A stretch of 60,268 nt of DNA, the filler included, from Globobulimina sp. (lineage: Eukaryota): NCBI GenBank assembly GCA_003354225.1. It is 12 parts of 12 records of this genome, joined end to end, with 100 filler letters (N's around TTAATTAATTAA, not from the genome) between each part and the next. Parts side by side here need not be neighbours in the genome. Positions count along the whole stretch, not along the records: positions 20,155 to 25,091 come from PIVH01000835.1; 11 more parts are not named here. One strand, written 5' to 3'. This document shows positions 4,941-56,961 of the stretch, in pieces; position 1 is the stretch's first letter; each line of letters starts with the position of its first letter. A program made the translations under genes and the position numbers. The notes under the pieces were generated by a model that saw only the letters and a list, made by a program, of their open reading frames with translations, had not been told where the DNA came from and ran no database searches.

Positions 4941-5040
4941 NNNNNNNNNNNNNNNNNNNNNNNNNNNNNNNNNNNNNNNNNNNNTTAATTAATTAANNNN
5001 NNNNNNNNNNNNNNNNNNNNNNNNNNNNNNNNNNNNNNNN
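4941..5040. other. Artificial contig spacer (N44-TTAATTAATTAA-N44), first of 11
   Basis: Identical 100-nt spacers at 4941, 9980, 15018, 20055, 25092, 30125, 35154, 40183, 45207, 50230 and 55251. The core places stops in all six frames. Contig lengths run in descending order (4940 to 4918). Confidence 0.99.
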
Positions 5041-6684
5041 AACAGCAGCACCACCGTAGCAGCCACTATGTACATATCCTATTTATGTGGAATATCAATA
5101 TTTGTAACTGGCGGTGTTGGCGGTGTACATCGCGGCGTCCAGGAAACCTGGGACATTTCAGCTGATTTAATTGAATTATCTCATACCCCAATCACTGTGA
5201 TTTGTGCTGGAATAAAATCAATTTTAGACATTGCAAAAACATTGGAATACTTAGAGACAAATGGCGTTACTGTCACGACATTAAAACAAGACAATTTCCC
5301 TGCTTTTTTTATGTCTGATTCGAAAATAAAATCACCGTTAAAATCAAATAGCATCTCTCAAATCGCTGAAATGATCAAAATATCAAAGGAATTAAAATTA
5401 AATAATGGAATATTAGTTGCCGTTCCAAACACATTTGATGATAAATCGGATGATAGTTTTTCAAAAACCATTGAGAAAGCTACGGATATTTCATTACGAG
5501 AAATAAAAGAAAAGCACATTACAGGACGTGATATCACACCATATATTTTAGATCGTGTGCATACATTAACAAACGGACAGTCTTTAAATGCAAATATAAA
5601 ATTAATACATAACAATGCTGAAGTTGGTGCGCAGATTGCATTGGAATTATATAATAATACGTCTGATGTGTTAGTGATTGGAGGCTGTGTTTGTGATATT
5701 ATTGCAGCACCAAACAAAAATAATAAATCCTTAGTAACTTACACATCAAATCCAGGATTATCACAGATTAGCTTTGGCGGAACCGGTCGTAATATATCTG
5801 AATGCATTGCAAAATTAAATCATTCTGTTACTATGTTAAGTGCTGTTGGTGATGATGTTTTTGGTCAGAAAATCATAAAACATTTGAATAAATATGCAAT
5901 AAATACATCAAATATTATAAAATCAAAGAAATATGCCACTAGTAAATATATTGCAATCTTGGATGGAAATAATGATTTATTTGTGTCTGTTGCGGATCTG
6001 TCAGTATTAGAAAATGAAATGGATGCAAATTATTTTAATGATTCAAAGATTAAAAATATTATAAAATGTGCAAGATTTATTGTATTGGATGGGAATTTAA
6101 CATATGACGTATTAGAACAAATAACATCAAATATAAATATTAAGAATGTTGCCATTTGGTATGAACCGATATCTGTTGAAAAGAGCAAACGTATTGTAAA
6201 TAAAACCAATAATAAAATATTGCCTGGAATCACATATATATCACCAAATGAAATGGAATTATTTGCATTGTTAAAAGAAACAAAATATCCATTTCTAATT
6301 AATGACAATATTATTAATACTGCAGATATTGCTGAATATGTTAAATATTGTACATATATCATACAATGTGGTGTTGAAAATATTATATTAACAATGGGAG
6401 CAAATGGAGTTTTAGTTGTAATGAGGAATAAGAATAATGGATATATTACACATGAACATATTAAAGTAAATCAACTTCAATCGTCACAAATAAAAAATAC
6501 AAATGGTGCAGGGGATAATTTATGCGGTGCGACAATATGTTCGTTGCTTGAAGGCAATGATTTAATTCAATCAGTTGCAAAATATGGAATTGCTGCTTCA
6601 AGATTATGTTTACAATCAAAGGATGCTGTAAATCATAAACTCTCTCCACAGCTATTAAAGCTAGCGCTTCGATCTAATCTCTGA
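5041..6684 (+). CDS. psuG: Bifunctional pseudouridine-5'-phosphate glycosidase / PfkB-family pseudouridine kinase (5'-truncated)
   Basis: PsuG motifs TTVAATM, FVTGGVGGVHRG, DISADLIEL, GIKSILDIAKTLEYLET and GRDITPYIL, followed by PfkB motifs GGTGRNI, AVGDDVFG and NTNGAGD. The frame is open to the contig edge. Confidence 0.93.
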   Translation, partial: NSSTTVAATMYISYLCGISIFVTGGVGGVHRGVQETWDISADLIELSHTPITVICAGIKSILDIAKTLEYLETNGVTVTTLKQDNFPAFFMSDSKIKSPLKSNSISQIAEMIKISKELKLNNGILVAVPNTFDDKSDDSFSKTIEKATDISLREIKEKHITGRDITPYILDRVHTLTNGQSLNANIKLIHNNAEVGAQIALELYNNTSDVLVIGGCVCDIIAAPNKNNKSLVTYTSNPGLSQISFGGTGRNISECIAKLNHSVTMLSAVGDDVFGQKIIKHLNKYAINTSNIIKSKKYATSKYIAILDGNNDLFVSVADLSVLENEMDANYFNDSKIKNIIKCARFIVLDGNLTYDVLEQITSNINIKNVAIWYEPISVEKSKRIVNKTNNKILPGITYISPNEMELFALLKETKYPFLINDNIINTADIAEYVKYCTYIIQCGVENIILTMGANGVLVVMRNKNNGYITHEHIKVNQLQSSQIKNTNGAGDNLCGATICSLLEGNDLIQSVAKYGIAASRLCLQSKDAVNHKLSPQLLKLALRSNL

Positions 6685-6740
6685 CAAAATGTGCATTAAA
6701 CTGAAAACCCTTCTTAGAAAATAGTATTTTAAAACTTCTG

Positions 6741-8018
6741 ATGGGAAACAAGTGCACTGGAATTGCAAGGAAACATAACAATTCAAATTCAAAACATAGT
6801 TCAAAAGCAGAACTTAAATCTCAATCCGATAGAATAAATTTATTGTTGCCAACAGGATACATTCGTCACATAGAGAAACAGTATTATAATTTATTCGTAC
6901 CAGACACTATCAAATCCATCATCTGTCAATATGCACGACACTCAAAGTATAAGATTCATCAAATTGGTGGAGATAATGGTGTGTCTGCCAGTGCATTGGA
7001 ACAAAGAATAGGAAATGTCTCAGTATATAACTTTTATAAGAACCATCGCGAATTACTGGTAATAAATGACCAATACGATGTTGTAAAATGGGGAAACAAA
7101 ACGGGAGCTATTAATTTTATCCATAAAATAGAACAAATTGTTTTATTATCGACTGGGTGCTACAATAAATATCATACAGTTGCATTGAGCCAAGACAATA
7201 AGATTTATGTAGCAGGTTGTAATGTATTTGGACGTACAGCACATGGCAACCATCCGTCGTATATTAAAAAGGATGGTAATAATTTTTGGGAATTACTTGA
7301 AATACCATTTTTTTTAAATGATATTAATGATCAAGTCGTTGATATTCGATGTGGAGTCAAACATTGTTTATTCTTAACCCAATGTCATAATTTATATGCT
7401 GTTGGCTCCAATTCTGATGGACAACTTTGTAAAAACACTTCAAATCCATATCCAAATATGCCTACATTGGTCCTAACAGAGATTATTGCCATGGATGTGG
7501 GAATGAATCATAATTTATTGATACATAATAATGGTAATTTACTATGTTACGGACAATTGGATTGTTCGCCATTTTTAGATAACAAATCAATAATGGATTA
7601 TTTTAAGAGAAACAAAATTTCATTTAAAATGGTAAGGTGCGGTGCAAATCATTGTATATGTGTCTCTGACGAGAATTTGTTATATGCATTTGGACATAAT
7701 GATTATCATCAACTTGGACATAAAGATTTGACAAATTATGTCGAGTTGAGATATTTTAAGGAACCGATCCAACTGTTAACTCAATGTCGAGTGTCAACAG
7801 CTGATTGTGGTATGAATCATAATCTAGTTTTGCTAAAAAACGGTGATTTAGTATGTTTTGGTCGAAATAATAATAATCAATGTGGGAGAAACACCAATTG
7901 GGATACAGTACCTTCACCGTACATCATAAACAAAGAAAAAGATTTATTGCTTCCTTCTTCAACATGTATTTGGTCTATTATTGCATTTGCAGACAACTCA
8001 CTCATTTTTGTTGATTGA
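6741..8018 (+). CDS. RCC1/BLIP-II repeat protein with MGNKC N-terminus (possible myristoylation)
   Basis: Repeated CGxxH(C/N)L...LY(A/C)FGxNxxxQ(L/C)G motifs typical of RCC1 blades. Confidence 0.88.
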   Translation: MGNKCTGIARKHNNSNSKHSSKAELKSQSDRINLLLPTGYIRHIEKQYYNLFVPDTIKSIICQYARHSKYKIHQIGGDNGVSASALEQRIGNVSVYNFYKNHRELLVINDQYDVVKWGNKTGAINFIHKIEQIVLLSTGCYNKYHTVALSQDNKIYVAGCNVFGRTAHGNHPSYIKKDGNNFWELLEIPFFLNDINDQVVDIRCGVKHCLFLTQCHNLYAVGSNSDGQLCKNTSNPYPNMPTLVLTEIIAMDVGMNHNLLIHNNGNLLCYGQLDCSPFLDNKSIMDYFKRNKISFKMVRCGANHCICVSDENLLYAFGHNDYHQLGHKDLTNYVELRYFKEPIQLLTQCRVSTADCGMNHNLVLLKNGDLVCFGRNNNNQCGRNTNWDTVPSPYIINKEKDLLLPSSTCIWSIIAFADNSLIFVD

Positions 8019-8057
8019 TTTTGCGAAATTAATTTTGTTGATTAATTGTAAAAAAAG

Positions 8058-9947
8058 TTACAACTCCGAATCACTTATTACAAATTCAAGTTTTCTTTTT
8101 TTCTTTTGTTTGAATATTTTTTTCATTTCATTTCTTATCCCGATTTGTGGTATCAACACAGCCCAATCACTCGACTCTAAATCATTCAATCTGTCATCTG
8201 TCACCTGATGATGTTTAAATACACCCAATACATTGACATAGTGTTTCAGACTTATTTGTTTCAATGTTTTCTCAATCCATTCATACTTTTTATTGCCATT
8301 TAATATTGCAACAGGAGAGAATGTGTCGACTGCCAAATTGTATTTCATTTCATCGCTTATAGCATTAATTGGATTTGATACTTTTTTTTCTTCTTCTTCT
8401 TCCTTGGCATCCTTGCCATCATTAAATGTTTCCAGAAACGGTATACGTAAATCCATATTATTATTAGTTAATATCTCTACTATTCCACTTTGATTATTAT
8501 TGCGATCATCTGTATCTGTATCAGTTTCAATGTACAATAAACTGCCAACATCGAACGTAAACCCATCTGCTGAATTATTCACAGAGTTATTTTTACGATT
8601 TTTAGTTTGTTTAACTTTGTGTATTTGTTCTTGTAACAATAAGCGATGATTATTAATATTATGATATGGATTATCGTCAATAATGCCATACGAATGTAAG
8701 TTTTTATTTGCTATTTTGAGTGAGTTTAGGTTCATATTATCGCTGATTGGATTCCCCCAGCTCCAATTCCCAGAGGTCTCGTCCGGATCCATTACGATAG
8801 CTTCATACATTCGAGTTTGAGCATTCACGATTTCAATAAAAGTGGTGAATGATATATGTTGGATTGCATCTTCACTTTTTAATCCAAACTCATCCGAATT
8901 CCATGAAAACTCTGAAACGGAGCTGTTGTTCAGTCGAAATGTCTCCACTTTTGCGTTTGCATAACTTGTTCCATTGCATTCCACCAAAATATGCCATAAC
9001 ACATCAATGGATGTAATATTAGGAGGCAATGATAGTAAATGTAGCCGAATGACTAACTCATGCGTCCAGGCATATACTTGGGCAAATACTAAACACCAAT
9101 TATTATCTAATAAGGGTGACGAATATATCTTTTTTTCAGGATTAAGTGATGGATTTAATGTCCATTTATACTCGATGCGTTTACACATTCTTGTATTTGA
9201 ATGATAGACACTTAATATATTACGTTGTGTGTCTAAAATATCAACATGTAATAAGTCTAAATTTCCAGTGAATTGAACAGATTCAAATGATTTTAAATCT
9301 TCAGCTCTAAAAAATGCAGAATGGTCTAACTCTGTTAATATTTCTATATTATCCACCATAGCAAATGAAGTATTAATGATGGATTGAAATTGTTTGTTTA
9401 ATGGTTTGCAATAAATCGTAACCAAAGCAACAATTTTAGCGGTTTTTTGTTGTGGTAATAGTGAATGTGTGAAGTTAGTGTAAAGGTACAAACGTTGAGA
9501 GTTTCCTGCAAAATCCCACGAACTGTTTGACTCTTGTTTTTTAATAATAATTTGAAAATTCATATGGTTGCAACAAAATATTTTGCTTTTATAATAATGG
9601 TATTTATTTAGATGGATAGATTGCACATCGAATGAAAACCCAACCAATCCAAACATATTAAGACATAATGCCAATATATCATTTGGTACTGATTTAGAAT
9701 GGCTCATTCTTCCATATCCAAATACTAAATATTCTCTGTCAATTTTCGATGAAATAACAATTTCGTTTTCTGTGGATGTCCATTTCTCATAATTACAAGG
9801 AGGTGTTATATCCCAATCCCATGTAAAATCTATGTTAAACAGATAATTTTTGTATCAATGCAGGTATATATCATCGCCTTAACTCGAATTTACGTTGGAA
9901 TTTCCTGGTACACCAGAAATACTCGAATCAAAATCCCAACCAGACAT
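8058..9947 (-). CDS. Hypothetical protein with MATH-like beta-sandwich region(s) and C-terminal SAM-like domain
   Basis: ORF 8058..9707 extends upstream in frame (YLVFGYGRM). A putative first exon starts at ATG 9947, with an intron at ~9830..9883. The C-terminus WIEKTLKQI...FKHHQVTDDRLNDL...LIPQIGIR is SAM-like. Confidence 0.65.
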
Positions 9948-20054: not shown

Positions 20055-20156
20055 NNNNNNNNNNNNNNNNNNNNNNNNNNNNNNNNNNNNNNNNNNNNTT
20101 AATTAATTAANNNNNNNNNNNNNNNNNNNNNNNNNNNNNNNNNNNNNNNNNNNNTT

Positions 20157-23100
20157 TTCCACAGTGATCCGCAACTTTGTGGTGAACAAAAACTACGACC
20201 GTATGAATTACCAATAGCTGGTAATAAATACAAAGGACTGTCTATATTTGAACAGAACCATTGCATACTAAATAGACAACATAGAATGCATAAAATATAC
20301 AGCAAAATATCGATATCCGATGTAATGCTAAAAATACCACAAACAGAGTTACAACAAAAAAGAATAAGTAAGACAAAAGATAAGAATATATCCGACATAT
20401 CCTGGCACTGTAAAATCAATAAAACAATGCACAAACAGAACAATGCCAATGAATTGGAGCCGGAAATATGTAAATCACACAAATTGGAAATAGAACAGAA
20501 AACAGTGACAACAGAACAACACAAATTATGCATATTTAAAATTAATATATTGAAATCTTGCAACATCTGCCCACTTGCTCTAAAACAAAAGTACATAGAC
20601 AGTAAATTGAACAGACACAAAAATACACAAAATAAAAAAAACAACAACAAAAAACCTCGCAGTCAGCAAAGAAAATCAAAAAAGCATCCTCAACACAAAA
20701 AAAGCAAAAACAAAACAACACCAAGCCATAACAAAATGTCAACAAAAAAAAAGAAACAAACAAAGCTACAAATTGGAAATAGTGGGAAGAAACAGAAAAA
20801 CAAAAACAAAAAAAACACAAAAAACACCAAAAACAACAAAGGAAAACAAAAGAGACCAATACAACAAACATTAAAAGAACATGAAATCAATGATCCAACT
20901 CCTCCAACAAAACGACGTAAAACAGATGATAAAAGAGCGAATTTACGAGCAAATCTATTACGTGACAGAGAAATTGCAAGAAATGCAGTGGCACCAATAT
21001 CATACAAAGATAAATTATTACACAACAAAGACAGTCAGCAAAATAAGAATGAGACACCAATACCTGTTACGCCTCAACAACAACCACCAAAACCAAAAGC
21101 GCCACCTCCAATTTATGAAGAATCATCATCTGATCCAGACGATGATGTACCAGTAAATCAATTATTAACGCAAAGCAAAAACAAAAAGAAAAACTCCGAA
21201 AAAATACCAAAAAAACAGAAACCAAAATTAAATTTAACAAACATAAATAGCGCACAAAAACCAAATGATCCGCGCACACCAATAACACCGCGTGCAAATC
21301 CATTAAATGAGCAAGATTTCAACAACTTGAAATACCAAAACCGAAAACTCACCGAACATAACAACTATTTAGATCAAAAATTAAAGACACAAAACCGACA
21401 TATCATTACGCATCAACAAGAAGCAAAAAAACAATATGACAAATACAAAAAAGAAGAAAAGCAAGTATCATATTTACGCGCCTCCAACAATGCATTACAA
21501 CGGAAAAATGAGGAATTTGAAGAAAATTATGAAGACGCCACAAAACTACGCAAGCAATTAAATGAATCAATGGAGACGGCGGCATCCTACAAAACAAAAA
21601 TTGCGCAACAAAAACAGGCATTGAAAAAGCAAAAAGTCATTCATGAGATTGAGGTAAATGATAGGAAACAATGGGTTGATGCATACCATCATATCAAAGA
21701 AAAAGAAAAAGCGGATGAAGATAAAAAAAAAGCCAATGAAGCAAAATCAAAAGAATTGAAGGAAAAAGAGCAACAATTAAGAGCAATGAACACAAATTTG
21801 ATGCAACGCGAAGAAGAGCTCAAAAATCGGAAAAAAACAGAAATTTCTGCAATGGATATGGATAACAAACAAATCGATGAATTAGAAATCGCGAATTCGC
21901 AACTTAATGATGAAATTATTCGACAGCGGACAGAATACATACAAAAAATGCAAGAAAATGAAGCGAAATTTAATAATGACATCCAAGAATTAGTCAGAAA
22001 ACACAACGAAGAAATAAAACAATTACAAAATGAACAAAGATCACCATCGATCATATCCAACCAAACCGAAGCATTTTTAACAATGCATAGTATCAATGAA
22101 AATGATGAAAATGATGAAAATGATGAAAATGAAGAGGATGATGACAATGATGATGATATGAATGAGACAGAATCATCATTCATCGATAGCACAGACAACA
22201 CATCAAATTCCTCAGAAAACAACACAATTATTACACCAACTCCGCAACAAATGTATCAAACACCACTCAGTGTACTTGGCATGCAATTCCTACCACGTTT
22301 GGGAATACATATTCCTGCAACATTAAAAATTGAAATTGCAAAATGTCCGGTCAATTACCAGACAATTGGCATAAATAAAGAAAGAAAATTAAAGGAAATT
22401 GACCTAAGCCACGCGACAGAAACCAAAAAGATATTAAAAAATGCATGGAAATTAGAAAATAAAGCAGTATACAACTGGTCAACGCATGCATTACCATTTA
22501 ACATCAAACCATGGACCTCATCCTTTGACGGAGTATATTCACTATCACCAGACAAGAAAACGAATGATTTTAAAATTTATTTAAAAAAAAAAGACAAAGC
22601 AACCGGTGAGAATATGAGTCTTTCCGCCAATGCGCAAGAAATAACCACTGAATGGTTGGATATCAGCAAAGCAATAACGGGAATTGAAGCAAATGTCATA
22701 TATGCCATACAATTGGAAGCAGATAAATGTGATGATCCAATATCATATGAAATAAAATTGGACGACATAGCCGATCAAAATGACGTAATGGCGATTGTAT
22801 TGAACACAAAAACATCCATCAGATACAAAATTAATCAACATCGACTCCAAACTGGTGGCCGAGGATATGATAAATCCGCAATAATCCTACCTACAAACAC
22901 ACAATCAATACAAATTGTATCCACAGCCAGCAAATTGAATGGAAAACCAAAAATTGATGCATCAGAACCAGAATTTGTTGTAGAATTATTCATTATTTGT
23001 AGCAAAAAAAGCGAAATTATGCCAACATATGAAGGAAAATATGATATTGCCAAATTAAACGAAAAAATCCGCAATGAACTCGTCACAGAAAAAGCAACTG

Positions 23101-25091
23101 ACACTGGGCTCCAACGACGAATCCAGCGAAACAAAGACCGCATGAAACTCCGTCCAAGGTATGATTCTTACACTAAAATCACAATAACACACACACGCAA
23201 CCACTATACAACAGAAATAACAGTAGAAATACCAACAATTAATGAAAAAACACAACAACACAAAAGACAACATAAATCCATTTATTTTTATGTACAAAAT
23301 ACACAAATTTATAATATATTATATATTTTACTATATTTAGTTTATTTTTTTTTATTACCCCAAAAAATACAGACACAACAACAGATAAAGCAATTAAATT
23401 CAAATAAAAACAAAAAAAAACAAATAAAAATTAAAATAACCATTATTATCAAAGAAAAAAATACATTCAAGGATGCCTCTATGATAAACAAACTATTCAC
23501 AAAGCATTGCAATCCTCCAATCATAGATGACCTTTTTTTACTAATTAGAATAATATGTCTCCCCCTTTTTTGCATATTATTCCAAAAATTTACACATTTT
23601 TGTGTCAAAATCAATGTATTTCTTTATAATATAAAAAGAAAAATTGACATCTATCTTGTTGACTGCCTCTGTGACATTAATTTTATACTTATATTATGTT
23701 TTTTTGCATGTATATATATTGTGTTGTTGTTATTCATTAATTTTCAAATATTCAAATATATTTATCACCATTTAACACATATCCTTGCACAAAAACAATA
23801 TAATTCAGTAAAACAAAAAAATAGCTTGATTCGACTTAACTACTATCAAAATATAAAAAAAAAGAAAGACGAACGGTATAAATATAAAAAACAGAAAATA
23901 CAAAAAAAAGAAGAAGCAACAAATTCAATACATCAATATAATCCATACAGAAAATACACAATAAATAAAATCCAATCTCACAAACAGCCATTAACAGGAC
24001 ATACAAGAAATGGACAATGCAAACCACTCTCCTCCTTACTCAATCTCATAACTCTCTGTGCCTCTCCACTGACCCACACTAAACTTCGTTTACGTACATT
24101 TTTTGCAAAAATATTACAAGTCCCATCAAAAATTGCCTTTGCAAATAAATCCTCAATTGATAAAAATGAAATAGCAGATGATACAACCTTCTCTGTTGAT
24201 AAATGTTCAATCACTTCATTCTTTCCTACATCAAACGAAAAAATTGTTTTATTACAGATTGATAACACATATTCACCTCCCATGCAACGTTCCATCTCCA
24301 TTGAAATTAATTTGCTATATTTAAACTTTAAAAGCCGCGTAAGTATATTATATAATCTCTCTACCTCTTCACCATCCGATGTATCCCAATCCTCTTTACT
24401 CTCCACGCGCTTTGAACAAATTACAGCTAAACAAAGCACATTCAAAATCAATACACAAAACAGCCCTAAAAAAATACAACGCATACCCAAAAGCTTTCGA
24501 ACTTTCTTAACATGCATATTTAATGAAATACTACAAACATATCGATTCTGTGCATGGGTAAAAACCAATACTTGGTTATATTCATACAAAATTGGCAGGA
24601 TTTTCTTAACCAAAAAAACGAGATATCCAGTCAAATCCAATGAAACTGACTGCATTTGCTTTGTACGACATTCCTCATTTGATTTGATTTCATACATTTG
24701 CTTCGCACGCCATCCCCTATACTCAATCAATAATCGCTTATTTTCACCAGATAACCAATGCCACATCGTTTTAAATCGTATATATCCACGCCAATCACGA
24801 CCATGCGTAAAATACTCAACTCCCTCCCTATGGCTTTCCCACAAAGAGAATTGCTCCACAATACAGGTTGGATCTGCTAATACCAATTCATGCAAATCAT
24901 TTGGACCATACCCAGTTGGCCACAACACAATCCCAGATACATTACTATCCCATACTGATAACTCATCCACTTCCTCAACATCAACGGTCTTAACCTCAGC
25001 CATGCACAAAAACCAAATATTCTCTGTAAATATAAAAAACACAAACTTCACAAAAAACCCACTTACCAAAAATAATCAGTATCCGCCACAA
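20157..25091 (+). CDS. Contig-spanning open reading frame (about 1645 codons, both ends truncated): Lys-rich region, long coiled coil, acidic patch, globular domain, TM-like segments
   Basis: ORF track 20286 runs into the spacer and the frame is also open upstream to 20157. The region ~20736-23160 is clearly protein-like. The + strand is strongly A/C-rich. Confidence 0.7.
23978..25003 (-). CDS. Hypothetical protein encoded antisense inside the giant ORF; spliced
   Basis: ATG 25003 (MAEVKTVD). In-frame intron 24427..24486 (GTATGC...TTTAG, 60 nt). Upstream intron 25024..25066 (GTAAGT...TTTACAG). Composition is globular-like. Confidence 0.65.
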   Translation of the reverse strand: MAEVKTVDVEEVDELSVWDSNVSGIVLWPTGYGPNDLHELVLADPTCIVEQFSLWESHREGVEYFTHGRDWRGYIRFKTMWHWLSGENKRLLIEYRGWRAKQMYEIKSNEECRTKQMQSVSLDLTGYLVFLVKKILPILYEYNQVLVFTHAQNRYVCSISLNMHVKKVRKLLGMRCIFLGLFCVLILNVLCLAVICSKRVESKEDWDTSDGEEVERLYNILTRLLKFKYSKLISMEMERCMGGEYVLSICNKTIFSFDVGKNEVIEHLSTEKVVSSAISFLSIEDLFAKAIFDGTCNIFAKNVRKRSLVWVSGEAQRVMRLSKEESGLHCPFLVCPVNGCL

Positions 25092-25191
25092 NNNNNNNNN
25101 NNNNNNNNNNNNNNNNNNNNNNNNNNNNNNNNNNNTTAATTAATTAANNNNNNNNNNNNNNNNNNNNNNNNNNNNNNNNNNNNNNNNNNNN

Positions 25192-28100
25192 ATCCTCCAT
25201 CCAATCCACGGACCCGTAATATAAACCCATTTAATGCTAACCTCAACAATCACATCAACGATCCCATCATGTTTGTAGCGGCCAAACCAAGAAAAGAGGA
25301 ACATTGTGACCATCTTCTGCTTCCGCCTCCCCCCCACTAGAAGCCGCTTGCAATGACTCGGAGGTCTGGCTACACCAAAATCATATTGAAGGTATACCCT
25401 GTTTCAACCCAGATCGTCTCTCTCCGCATGAACCCGAACAAAATGAGATGTTCCAACTTGAACAGAAGTCCATACAAAACATAACAGATAGCGATGATAA
25501 TGACAGCATAATTGACGGCATAACTACCAACACTGTAGGCAACCAAATCAATCCCCCCAGTTCACCGCAAATCCATTCTTCTCCAGACAGTGCAGACCAT
25601 GATGCAGACACAAAACGTCTCAAATACTCATCAGTGGAAGCTGCAATTATTGCCGCCTAGGTTCCATTATCTCGATCTTAAAAACACCAGACGGTAATAC
25701 ACCGAACCAATACCGCCCAATAACCCTCTTGCCCCTTATATTCAAAACTTATGAACGCCTGATATTGTGGAGAATGAATATTGACCATAAGTTCAGGAGA
25801 AACCTGCACATCCTCCAAGGTGGCAACAGAGCAAAACGTGGGGTTCCAGAGCAGATTGGCACTCTCCATTTGGTCTCTGAAACTGCTAAACACCAAAATA
25901 AACCCCTTTACTGCGCCTCCCTTGATATTAGAAAAGCATTTGACACCGTGTGGCGCAAAGGACTATTATATAAATTGCACCACCATTTTGATATTCCAAT
26001 CAATCTCTGCAAAATAATCAAAGCTATCTACAACAATTCACAATCAGCCATCCGTGATATCCCATTCATCACTGAACTCTTCAAATTGCACAATGGTGTC
26101 CTTCAGGGCTCTGTCCTCAGTCCCATACTGTTTGCTGCCTTTATAAATGACATGATTGATATCCTCCAATCCTCCAAAAAAGGTGCCGTTTCCCCTGATC
26201 GTGACCGTTTAATCGCTTGCATATTCTATGCTGATGACGTTGTCCTCACAGCAAATACCATTGAAAATCTTGCTTCTTTGCTAAAAATATGTGAGGAACA
26301 CAGCCACCATTGGGCGTACACATTTAATTCAAAAAAATGCAAAGCCATAATACATAACGACCCCTCCATTCTCACCAACAACACCCACCATCATAGCAGC
26401 GCGCAGAAAACCAAACTAACACAAGAGTACCATAATAAAATCAATCAGCCAACACAGAAACAAGCCCCGATGGTCCTAATCTCTGCTCTCACCAACAACC
26501 AATTGATGGCCATTGACATTGACGGCACAGTCTGCTCTTACAATGCAGAGGAAATCCCCCCTGAAATATTAACTCCCTTTAAAACACATTGCAGTTATTA
26601 CCAAAATAAAATATCAAACAAACCGTACCACATCATTTGGGACAATATAATCCATGATAATAGCTGGACCATCTCCAAAATGCACCATTTATGTCTCATG
26701 AATGGCAAGCCTCTGCAGATTGTCTCCTATCTGAGATATCTCGGCGCCCACCTTTGCTCGCATGATGCAGACAACATAGTATCGACAAAACGCACAAACA
26801 AAGTGTTTCTCAATAAGCTAGACCAAAAAGCCAAACTGCTATCACAGTTAGACTTCAACCATGATTTTATCTCCTTAAGTGACAAAATACGCATTCTAAA
26901 AACCTTCTATTTAGTTTACACTGAAATATTTGCTCAAGTACTCGACAGCAAAATTATTAATTTGACTGCTGCTTTAGACAAACAAATCCGCACAATAACG
27001 ACACAAACACAAATCAAAAATTTCGTATTTGAGCAGTTCTCAATCTTTGCAGGCATCCCTCCCCCTACGAACGATGGGTTGTATTGAAACTAGCTTTCTA
27101 TTGGAAGCTTTGCAAAGGAGAACCCATTTCATATATGCATAAATGGAATAACCTCCCAAACATATCCGATTACACCCTCTACAATCAATACAAATCCTTG
27201 AAACAAAAATGGCTGCCAAATCAAACCAAAATAATCAACAACATCTCAATCAGCGCAGACCCCTTCAATGACATACTCCATTCATCTGACCTAAGACCGT
27301 TGGTGGTAGTAAAACAACACCGAGAATTGGTTGCTACCTTCCACAATAAACACCCTTTCAATATCCTCCAGCATCATCTTTCTGACTACAAAGCAATGAA
27401 CACATTTGAGGTGCAGGACCTTGAAAATTACATAAAGCAACATATGATTATCCAATATCGCGAATTATTCTACGCTTTCAATCAAAAACCATCCCATTGT
27501 AACCTTTGCATGACACACACTCCAAATCCAATTGAATACCATCTCTGTATTGATTGCCCGCGACTGAGCACAATGAGGTATTCCTATTGGAACCATTCAA
27601 GACTGCCACTATCAAAAATTGGCTCTAAAATAAATCGCTGTCACAATCAAATTTTCATGCAACGAGTTATTGAATACTTTTCTGATGTCCGCCCCAACCC
27701 AGAGATACTATGGCTGTTAATATGCGGAGCAAATTTCTATATGATGAAAAAAACAATAATTTCACTTACCACCACCAGTCCATAGATATATCTCATCCCA
27801 GGAACACCTTTTACAAACACATTGTCTCCCTATCCCACCAATTCCTTGATTACGTGTACAGAATACATAAAAACAAACTCACCATCAAACACTGCACCAA
27901 TAAATACAGCCCAATATATGACCGCAATATAATCCACCACATCAGAAATGATACCATAAATGATTGGTACAATTATAAACACAAAATCAGACCCACAGAC
28001 ATACTAATCTCCACTGACTCCTCCAGCGAAGACAACCGCACAGGAATTGGAATAGCAATAAGAAACTACAACAAAATCCATTTCTTTGCTCAACCTATTG

Positions 28101-28790
28101 GCGCCCAAACGAACCATCACGGAGAGCTCCTTGCCATTGGCAAAACCAAATTCCTTCTGAAACACCACCAAATAGATTGCACTGATAGACGTGTCATCCT
28201 GTTCACTGATTCAATGACCAACTTTGTGTCGCTCATTGTCACCCCAAGAAATATAAAAAAATTAACATATGCAGGCCTCTTCAGAGAAACACAAAAACAC
28301 ATTATTGATAATAAAATCATCCTTTGGAAGATAAAGTCACATACTGAACCAGAGCAGCAAGTATATAATCAAATAGCTGACAGATTAGCGACGGTTGGAA
28401 GAATGCACCCCAAAAATAACAATCTCATAATCCCCGGCATAAACTCTACAAATCATGCTATTTCCAAATCGTTTGATATCCCCTTTGGATCCAGCGATGG
28501 ATCCTTGTTAAACCTCACGGGGATGTTCCTGCAATCCGTGAGCCTGGAATCAGACCTCCGGCCTGATTGAATTTTGTACCACTACTACTAGAGCTTTTAC
28601 TAACACATAACAAAGATGTATGGCAATATAAAAAATAGATATGGAGAAAGATGGGAAAGAGGATAAAGATGATAATTCAGATTCAAGCAGTGGCAGTCTA
28701 AGCCTGTCAGAATATATGGAAACAATGGACTGAACAACAAAAAAAAATGTGAATTTGCGCACAATATGACAAAAAATAAAAAAAAAAATA
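25192..28790 (+). mobile_element. Decayed non-LTR retrotransposon (LINE): RT, CCHC knuckle, RNase H
   Basis: RT motifs YRPITLL, LDIRKAFD, GVLQGSVLSP, YADD and RYLG; CNLC-x9-H-x4-C at ~27498-27557; RNase H-like ISTDSS, NHHGELLAI, LFTDS, WKIKSH and NQIADRLA. Stop at 28570 and an A-rich tract at 28772-28790 that may be the 3' end. Confidence 0.92.
25603..28570 (+). pseudogene. Frameshifted retrotransposon pol (ORF2) fragment
   Basis: Three track ORFs (25729, 27084, 27710) are collinear parts of one pol, broken at a C-run near 27060 and a TAT/ATG-A-run near 27740. No endonuclease is seen upstream. Confidence 0.85.
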
Positions 28791-46155: not shown

Positions 46156-46222
46156 CTGTCGCCTCAGGATTTGAACCTGAATCTTCTGGATTAATCCAGT
46201 GCTCTGCTTGAGCTATGCGGTC
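46156..46222 (-). pseudogene. tRNA-like cloverleaf with 4-nt anticodon loop and broken acceptor stem
   Basis: Paired D, anticodon and T stems with a canonical GGTTCAAATCC B box. No 7-nt anticodon loop and no GG in the D loop. Confidence 0.75.
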
Positions 46223-55432: not shown

Positions 55433-56961
55433 TCATTGCAAAATTGGTTCCCAAATTCCTAATGTCATCAACTCAGTTTTTTGTACCTTGTCTTTTTCAC
55501 CTTTTTCATCATCTGTTACAACATGATCTTGTCTTCCAACCAGTGACTGACCTCTAATTAGACGATATCGATGTGTTATTTTATCATTATCTTCATTAAA
55601 ATCAATATTTTTCTGTGTTAATGACAAAATATCATTAATTTGTTGCGTGTCATTAGAAATTCCCTGTAACGCTTTTGTATGATTTGATATTAATTCATTT
55701 AAATGTTGCTCAAATAATATTTTCTGTTCATTGACTCGATTTTTCAAATCGTCACAAATTGGCGCTTTTGATACTAATTTTTCTCTCAAATGTTCGTGTT
55801 TATTTGCCATTTCTTCATATTTAATTTGCTGATAATTTAATGTTGTTTTTATTTTTTCTATTTCATATTCATTTTGTTGCATCATTGAATCCATTTCATT
55901 ATTATAAGTAGTCTTTAATTCATTTAATTGTGTATATAAATTTGTTTTTTCTTCATTCAATTTTATAATATGAGTATCCAATCGATTTAAAGTAATCATT
56001 TTTTGTTTCAATGCATTTTCCAATTCGGTTTGCTCCTTTTTAGAATTTAATAATTCCCCTAACGTATTTTCATACAATTCCTTATTTTTTAGCAACTGCC
56101 CATGCAAATTATCTCTATCTTTTACAGCCATTTCCAATTTATTATTTTCTTCAATTAATTGAGAAATTTCGTTTTTTAAATTGTTTACTTTTTTCTCATT
56201 TTCATTAATATAATTTAGTAGTTTGCATTTCTCATTTTTTAAATTTTTCATTATATTCTTATTGGACTCATCGTTTGAAGCAATAACACCATTACAAAAA
56301 AGTATTTTCTTTTGCAAGTGATCAATATCCAGTTTTAGCTGATCATTCTGTGCCGATATCTGCTTTATTTTATTGTTTGCATTCGATTCTCTTTTTGCAT
56401 TCTCCTGCAATTTATTTTTATATGCACTGTGTTCACTTTTTAATAGTTTTAGTTTATTTTCAATGCCGGTCATGGAAGATACATACTGTTGTCTTTCATT
56501 CTGTAATTGTTGTTGTGTGTTATTTAAATCATATCTTAATTCAGCAATCGTTTTTGTTAACATTTGCAATGCAGAGTCGTCCTGATAGGCTGTGCTAAGT
56601 TTATTGCATTTGGGTGAGTTTAATTCTTTTACTGTCAAGATATTTGACAATCGTTTATTTTCATGGTGTTCCAGCTCTAATTGACTGTCTATGTTTTGTA
56701 AATACTCTTCCAATGATGATATTCTTTGATTTAATTCTTTCATATTTGTACATGTTTTGGGTTTAATTGCTGCAGTTTCATTATAGTTATCATTGTTGGC
56801 TGTTGCACAGTTACCGTTTTTTGTTGATGCGATTTGAGTTAATCTTGTGTTTAAATCAATAAGTTCTGTGGGTTTATATCATGTATAGATGTTATTGTTT
56901 ACAAACAAGGACATATTTGTTAACTTCGCACAAGCGCTTCGTCTCCATCGTCTTGAGTCAT
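55433..56961 (-). CDS. Long coiled-coil protein, 2 exons
   Basis: Heptad-rich ORF 55433..56743 is open upstream to an acceptor near 56866. A short first exon starts at ATG 56961 (MTQDDGDEALVR). Confidence 0.75.

Follow-up and report, generated by a model that had tools for sequence, protein, structure and literature searches.

A 1-kb stretch open on both strands suggests a possible nested antisense gene in a contig of Globobulimina sp.

We analyzed a window of 60,268 nucleotides (nt) from the assembly of Globobulimina sp. (GCA_003354225.1) and focused on one of its contigs, PIVH01000835.1. The plus strand of this contig carries a reading frame without a single stop codon, the protein-like left part of which is referred to here as gene A. 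Nested opposite the right part of the same frame is a complete minus-strand open reading frame (ORF), referred to as gene B, so that about 1 kb of DNA is open on both strands, which is far beyond chance. The window consists of 12 contigs placed end to end and joined by linkers in which the motif TTAATTAATTAA, with 11 occurrences, is flanked by 44 N on each side. The first linker is located at 4941-5040 and ten more follow at a spacing of about 5.03 kb, while the contig pieces decrease stepwise from 4940 nt to 4918 nt. Because the joined contigs are not genome neighbours, the giant plus-strand ORF is truncated at both contig ends, as is any other ORF that reaches a linker. The ORF had been listed as 20286-25139, and position 25139 lies inside an artificial linker, the real sequence extending to 25091. 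The features of the contig are as follows.

20155-25091, 4937 nt: the contig holding both genes, fifth piece of the window, with artificial linkers on both sides
20157-25090, plus: stop-free frame with codons at 20157+3k, 1644-1645 codons, open at both contig ends
20155-20560, strandless: repeated 5' segment, also present in sequencing runs X2, X3 and X4 (X4 being a second organism)
20650-23242, plus: coding part of gene A, well supported by codon periodicity, variants and the frame model
23159-23214, plus: candidate intron of 56 nt, GTATGA..CAACAG, with another possible acceptor at 23223, proposed by inference only
23283-23981, plus: AT-rich spacer of 0.7 kb, guanine-plus-cytosine (GC) content about 23%, no codon periodicity beyond stop avoidance
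23879-23909, minus: second copy of the TATA-like module, 87% alike, 69 nt downstream of the gene B stop
23978-25003, minus: gene B, nested antisense orphan of 341 codons plus TGA (321 without 24486-24427), GC about 36%
24427-24486, minus: GTATGC..TTTAG segment of 60 nt, phase 1, either an in-frame intron or a single hydrophobic helix (IFLGLFCVLILNVLCLAVI)
25024-25066, minus: GTAAGT..TTTACAG segment of 43 nt upstream of the ATG, a putative 5' intron that holds the TATA-like module
25027-25057, minus: T-rich TATA-like module with the core TGTTTTTTATATTTA, ending 23 nt before the ATG

Over the whole contig, the stop-free plus frame contains 0 stop codons versus 87 and 152 in the two other plus frames, and the frame can be divided into gene A, the AT-rich spacer, and the antisense of gene B (23982-25090). 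From 23283 to 25076 the corresponding counts are 0, 31, and 46. The minus-strand frame is open from 25075 to 23981, with a TGA at 25078-25076 upstream, the first ATG at 25003, and the stop TGA at 23980-23978. A first-pass annotation, made from the sequence alone, had described a minus-strand ORF running from ATG 25003 to 23978, fully nested in the giant ORF, with about 1 kb open on both strands and the codons out of register. Our analysis confirms these coordinates, the nesting, and the register, in which the third codon positions of the two frames coincide.

The double openness was compared with several shuffled and permuted controls. When the plus-strand codons of 23982-25076 were shuffled, a mean of 13.1 stops appeared in the minus frame and none of 20000 shuffles was open; shuffling the minus-strand codons gave a mean of 11.5 stops in the plus frame and, again, 0/20000 open. 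With the plus protein held fixed and its synonymous codons permuted, 8.98 minus-strand stops are expected and 0/20000 permutations were open, whereas with the minus protein held fixed 4.56 plus-strand stops are expected and 16/20000 were open. The amino acid sequence of gene B thus already avoids most of the plus-strand stops (11.5 falling to 4.6), which indicates that both strands are adapted. The longest antisense open stretch over 23283-25090 measures 1095 nt versus a maximum of 609 nt in 3000 shuffles, while the longest one opposite 20157-23282 is an ordinary 564 nt, a length reached in 169 of 3000 shuffles. By comparison, opposite-strand openness in 13 further long ORFs of the window extends to a maximum of between 186 and 732 nt.

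The ends of gene B match a rise in GC to 36% from the 23% of the spacer. Its base usage by codon position is close to that of other genes in the window, G occupying codon position 1 at a frequency of 0.31, compared with 0.25 in the training genes of the window and 0.13 in the plus-strand reading of the same DNA. A second locus in sequencing run X1 shares positions 24988-25057, which span the module and leader and continue through the ATG to the fifth codon (MAEVK). That locus diverges on both sides of the shared segment, and its minus strand, read from a loose end, is open for the six codons that are visible. The repeat could be the sign of a small gene family whose members have the same 5' end, and the existence of a second locus sharing it probably explains why the contig ends here. 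Taken together, the shuffling statistics, the GC domain, the codon-position composition, and the 5' module favour gene B as a real gene. Its protein has no similarity to the plus-strand protein or to the other contigs of the window. Structure prediction for the minus ORF (AlphaFold2, single-sequence) yielded an unusable model with a mean predicted local distance difference test (pLDDT) score of 34.0. A search of the Atlas gave a recognition of 1530 for the minus ORF, with WD40/beta-propeller look-alikes at 0.91-0.92 and 113-144 shared features, which we treat as a lead only, as it has no backing from Pfam.

The two introns proposed in the first-pass annotation, at 24486-24427 and 25066-25024, are both present as sequence patterns, and removal of the first leaves a product of 321 aa, in line with the approximately 320 aa that had been estimated. 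The 60-nt segment is in frame and contains no stop, so its removal is not needed to keep the frame. It is the most T-rich part of the minus ORF (22 of 964 sixty-nt windows are equally or more T-rich) and encodes the only strongly hydrophobic window of the minus protein (Kyte-Doolittle 3.02). From its sequence, the segment could be an intron or a membrane helix equally well. The clearest intron of the window, 39232-39172 in a channel gene on another contig, has 61 nt, the ends GTTAGT..ATATAG, and 90% A+T; together with two further likely introns, of 56 nt with the donor GTATGT and of 54 nt with the donor GTTTGT, it points to a local range of 54-64 nt with ..YAG ends. A length of 60 nt falls within this range and 43 nt falls below it. 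Both putative segments have GT..AG ends and a G content of 0.26-0.27 versus 0.08-0.12 in the three local introns. GT..AG patterns of intron length are frequent, with five other in-frame matches from two donors within the minus ORF; the loose pattern scan that was used is unable to match a GTATGC donor. In the second X1 locus, the letters at 25018-25026 differ and the acceptor AG of the putative 43-nt intron is lost from that copy of the module. For this reason, the 43-nt segment is more likely a promoter or 5' leader than an intron.

The left part of the plus frame is a real gene that is under purifying selection at 20.9-22.7 kb. Regions 1, 2, and 4 of the plus frame, but not the spacer, show more codon periodicity than stop avoidance accounts for; in gene A, chi2 reaches 64.8 and 54.3, where the null means are 24.5 and 14.5. 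The X1 contigs supply 12 single-letter variants in 20931-22703, 10 of them synonymous in the plus frame, and two indels in gene A, of 6 and 18 nt, are both in frame. In the predicted product, a basic, lysine-rich region of low complexity is accompanied by a long coiled coil, an acidic repeat (NEND), and a globular part rich in beta structure. An AlphaFold2 model (single-sequence) of the part encoded by 22149-23282 had a mean pLDDT of 33.8 and was unusable, and the Atlas recognition for the plus reading was 1004, with no usable match. Removal of the candidate intron at 23159-23214 would let the plus-strand protein end at a TAA at 23240-23242, the same point at which the protein-like part ends. 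We consider this candidate intron a lead rather than a finding.

The variant contigs of X1 cover only 20294-20991 and a few short stretches, and at half depth they look like eukaryotic alleles or paralogues. On an X1 contig, part of the repeated segment at 20155-20560 occurs again 23 nt before the start of the contig studied here, and the depth of this segment in X4 is much higher. A variant copy of it carries 12 differences, two of which are silent by themselves (20324 and 20378), and keeps the plus frame without a stop. In the second organism (run X4), low-depth contigs are 92-95% identical to 20888-21194 of gene A; on the strength of these contigs, the second organism probably has an orthologue of the plus-strand gene. 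Taken over 20155-21194, what the second organism shares is about 92-100% identical. Within the window, a coiled-coil gene of similar style, its coding strand likewise rich in A, lies on another contig, at 55433-56743.

Between the two genes, the spacer retains no coding signature apart from its openness. Its periodicity (chi2 14.4) is close to the null value of 13.0 and is equalled or exceeded in 31% of simulations. It nevertheless contains 0 stops in the plus frame versus 16 and 18 in the other two. Being free of stops with no other sign of coding, the spacer points to selection against stop codons as such. The plus-strand translation of the spacer contains three to four hydrophobic stretches, which AT-rich sequence easily produces.

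The surroundings of the contig were also considered. The window has a GC content of about 33%, and its other contigs carry ordinary eukaryotic genes, including a four-domain ion channel, a Kelch/phosphatase protein, RCC1, a pseudouridine glycosidase-kinase fusion, and an RGS domain. These neighbouring genes and their introns indicate that the host is an AT-rich eukaryote with short introns. The contig under study is an outlier in composition within the window, with A at 0.51 over 20155-22154 and 0.36-0.44 beyond, and G at 0.07-0.16. Run X1 contains 96% of its sampled words, and its depth in this one run, taken from contigs and not from reads, is 21-34 throughout, which resembles that of a single-copy sequence, 20155-20560 being the only repeated part.

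Additional observations were made on the neighbouring contigs. The voltage-gated cation channel gene with four domains fills one contig (35254-40051, minus) and has one intron, of 61 nt. Gaps between ORFs are tight, with 56 nt separating the pseudouridine-enzyme ORF from the RCC1 ORF (6684-6741) and 39 nt lying between two convergent stops (8018-8058); this spacing suggests either a compact genome or unrecognised splicing. On the contig next to the one under study, a reverse transcriptase (RT) gene (RVT_1, E 4e-25) is located at 25729-28570 and is split over three overlapping plus frames. It is a decayed, non-LTR-like element (LTR, long terminal repeat), with a sense strand that is A/C-rich and G-poor, like the contig of the present study. 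Rfam reported a partial match similar to a transfer RNA (tRNA) at 46164-46215 (minus, 33.6 bits, model positions 8-63), where ARAGORN reported no tRNA. Neither Rfam nor ARAGORN reported anything within 20155-25091.

Our favoured reading, to which we give slightly less than an even chance, is that the contig holds a convergent pair of genes that overlap in antisense in an AT-rich eukaryotic nuclear genome with short introns. Gene A, on the plus strand and under purifying selection, would encode a basic protein that combines a coiled coil with a globular part. Its frame outlasts the protein-like part, which ends at about 23.25 kb, by another 1.8 kb without stops, passing first through the spacer and then antisense through gene B. 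Gene B would be a complete orphan gene of 341 codons with a TATA-like 5' module of its own, which may act as its promoter. In the overlap, gene B would be the partner constrained at the protein level, and the plus frame would be selected mainly against stop codons. Ribosomes on the plus-strand messenger RNA (mRNA) would then read on into a long and weakly constrained tail, possibly only in an isoform that retains the candidate 56-nt intron. That both strands are transcribed and translated, that the module is a promoter, and why stops are avoided are matters of inference. That the locus is an ambigram of a eukaryotic nuclear genome, with more than 1 kb translated in both directions and at least 4.9 kb of frame kept stop-free across a spacer that looks non-coding, we regard as doubtful.

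A number of results weigh against the favoured reading, the first of which is the lack of relatives. Word-indexed protein searches found no homologue of plus-strand residues 600-1010 (protein lengths 880-2802), of the plus-strand globular part (lengths 344-1098), or of the minus ORF. A HMMER search of 1.84 billion representatives, carried out for the minus ORF only, returned 0 matches. Sequences of the PDB gave no match to the plus part and only two chance-level matches to the minus ORF (E 0.74 and 0.79), Pfam and PHROGs yielded no homologue for either protein, and when both proteins were run against contigs of viruses, metagenomes, and prokaryote genomes, no relative was confirmed. Apart from the locus itself, nothing at 80% or more in the runs spans 23950-25091, and X2-X4 have practically no cover of this region. 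Secondly, the plus-strand tail is G-poor and atypical, and frame models trained on 3909 codons of the window differ by a few log units between the two strands of the overlap and cannot tell them apart. The sole variant in the spacer, at 23773, changes Leu to Ser in the plus frame and is therefore non-synonymous (n = 1). Furthermore, we know of no precedent, in a literature searched only near the topic, for a eukaryotic nuclear mRNA that is selected only to lack stops. A final difficulty is that the X1 contigs break within the locus, at the low-complexity stretch 23310-23446, with depths of 27.8 and 33.9 on the two sides.

This break also suggests an explanation that we consider unlikely, namely that the assembly is misjoined at 23310-23446, that two unrelated open frames are in phase there by accident, and that gene A ends elsewhere. 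The coincidence of the break with the low-complexity stretch is exact, the depths differ, and codon periodicity stops just before it. However, judging from the record offsets, two X1 contigs seem to have about 30 nt of this stretch in common. In addition, the right half taken alone (23447-25091) has a plus frame of about 548 codons with 0 stops that is antisense to gene B. As the right half is double-open by itself, the core observation stands even if a misjoin has occurred.

Quite unlikely, in our view, is an origin of the contig from an associate of the host, for instance a bacterium or a virus; it would then be a fragment of a giant gene in whose linker region an antisense cassette with a promoter is nested. 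The outlying composition of the contig is consistent with such an origin, as is the fact that either gene can be read without an intron. In contrast, no sigma-70-type promoter-like site is listed on the minus strand upstream of 25003, and the 20 nt before the ATG contain no AGGAG-like (Shine-Dalgarno) motif. The scans of prokaryote genomes, viruses, and metagenomes and the protein libraries described above provided no relative. The similar A-rich-strand coiled-coil gene at 55433-56743 and the half-depth variant contigs of X1, with their resemblance to eukaryotic alleles or paralogues, argue for the host genome instead.

It is distinctly improbable that only the long plus-strand gene is functional and that the minus ORF is a non-functional shadow of its frame. 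In agreement with this idea, the minus ORF is an orphan with a poor AlphaFold2 model (pLDDT 34) and a low Atlas recognition, and over the full length of the contig the minus frame whose third positions coincide with those of the plus frame has fewer stops (35) than the other two (77 and 121). Against this idea, no minus frame was open in 20000 trials either with the plus codons shuffled or with the plus protein fixed, and the longest shuffled stretch was 609 nt. Moreover, the limits of the ORF match a compositional domain and a repeated 5' module that includes the ATG, and of the two readings of the overlap DNA it is the plus-strand reading that is less gene-like.

The weakest explanation, which we judge very improbable, is the one offered in the first-pass annotation, that of a retroelement carrying an intron-bearing antisense passenger gene, whose plus-strand RNA would be the transposition intermediate in which antisense introns survive unspliced. 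In its favour, the base composition of 24155-25091 (A.36, C.26, G.10, T.28) resembles that of the RT-bearing sixth contig (A.35, C.26, G.14, T.25), a repeated segment lies at the 5' end, and the first part of the product, with its coiled coil ahead of a globular part, is loosely reminiscent of ORF1 or gag proteins. Against it, the plus product has no Pfam family at E<=1 over 1601 residues, and hence none for RT, RNase H, integrase, endonuclease, or gag, and comparison with the RT contig, including by tblastn, showed no similarity. No LTRs and no long direct or inverted repeats were found on the contig, although both ends of an element, if it is one, would lie beyond it. The depth is like that of a single copy with no second copy at 80% or more outside 20155-20991, and a retroelement would have no need to keep its own frame open across a passenger gene. 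In the Pfam scan only DUF7532 came up, at E 0.05 and below its cut-off, and no RNA-dependent RNA polymerase (RdRp) was among the Pfam matches to the plus product.

Returning to the favoured antisense pair, what it would mean depends on expression of the two strands. If both are confirmed, the locus will be a tractable eukaryotic case in which to learn why frames stay open and how two proteins share third positions; if they are not, it will serve as a warning that orphan double-open stretches can arise by means that are not yet understood. Should the locus prove to be a true ambigram, it would imply selection for uninterrupted ribosome transit on a cellular mRNA, and it would be a eukaryotic counterpart both of the ambigrammatic narnaviruses and of the genes nested in bacterial giant ORFs. 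To our knowledge, long antisense overlaps of two protein frames are contested in cells and are almost unknown at such length in eukaryotic nuclear genes.

Among cellular systems, a bacterial giant gene with a nested antisense cassette finds little support as a model, as neither a sigma-70 promoter nor a ribosome-binding site was found before the nested gene. Retroelements offer antisense ORFs such as HTLV-1 HBZ, HIV-1 ASP, L1 ORF0, and the antisense extra ORFs of plant Ty3/gypsy elements, and these genes are sometimes spliced and lie inside an element with a long sense ORF. At the present locus, in contrast, the defining retroelement proteins are absent from the Pfam results and multiple copies are absent from the depth in X1. 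In narnaviruses, the codons of the two ambigrammatic strands are aligned in register, whereas here it is the third positions that coincide, and openness on the minus strand covers no more than 1095 of 4937 nt. Ambigrammatic narnaviruses are RNA genomes of roughly 3 kb that contain an RdRp, while the sequence examined here is DNA of a cellular assembly that has none (bioRxiv 10.1101/761890, PMC8316113). An ambigrammatic narnavirus-like genome was rejected on these grounds, as the contig has no RdRp or other family in Pfam, a different register, and a minus frame that is open only in part.

There is a likeness in kind with nested genes of yeast, where NAG1 lies opposite YGR031W. As in yeast, the nuclear genome of a eukaryote carries a complete protein gene on the strand facing a longer host gene. 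A second yeast example, TAR1, is a nested antisense protein gene of 375 bp inside the 25S ribosomal DNA (PMC3026818). TAR1 lies opposite ribosomal RNA, whereas gene B places 1023 coding nt opposite an open protein frame, and the host frame here is also open through a spacer that looks non-coding. The locus differs from each of these cases in host, register, or extent.

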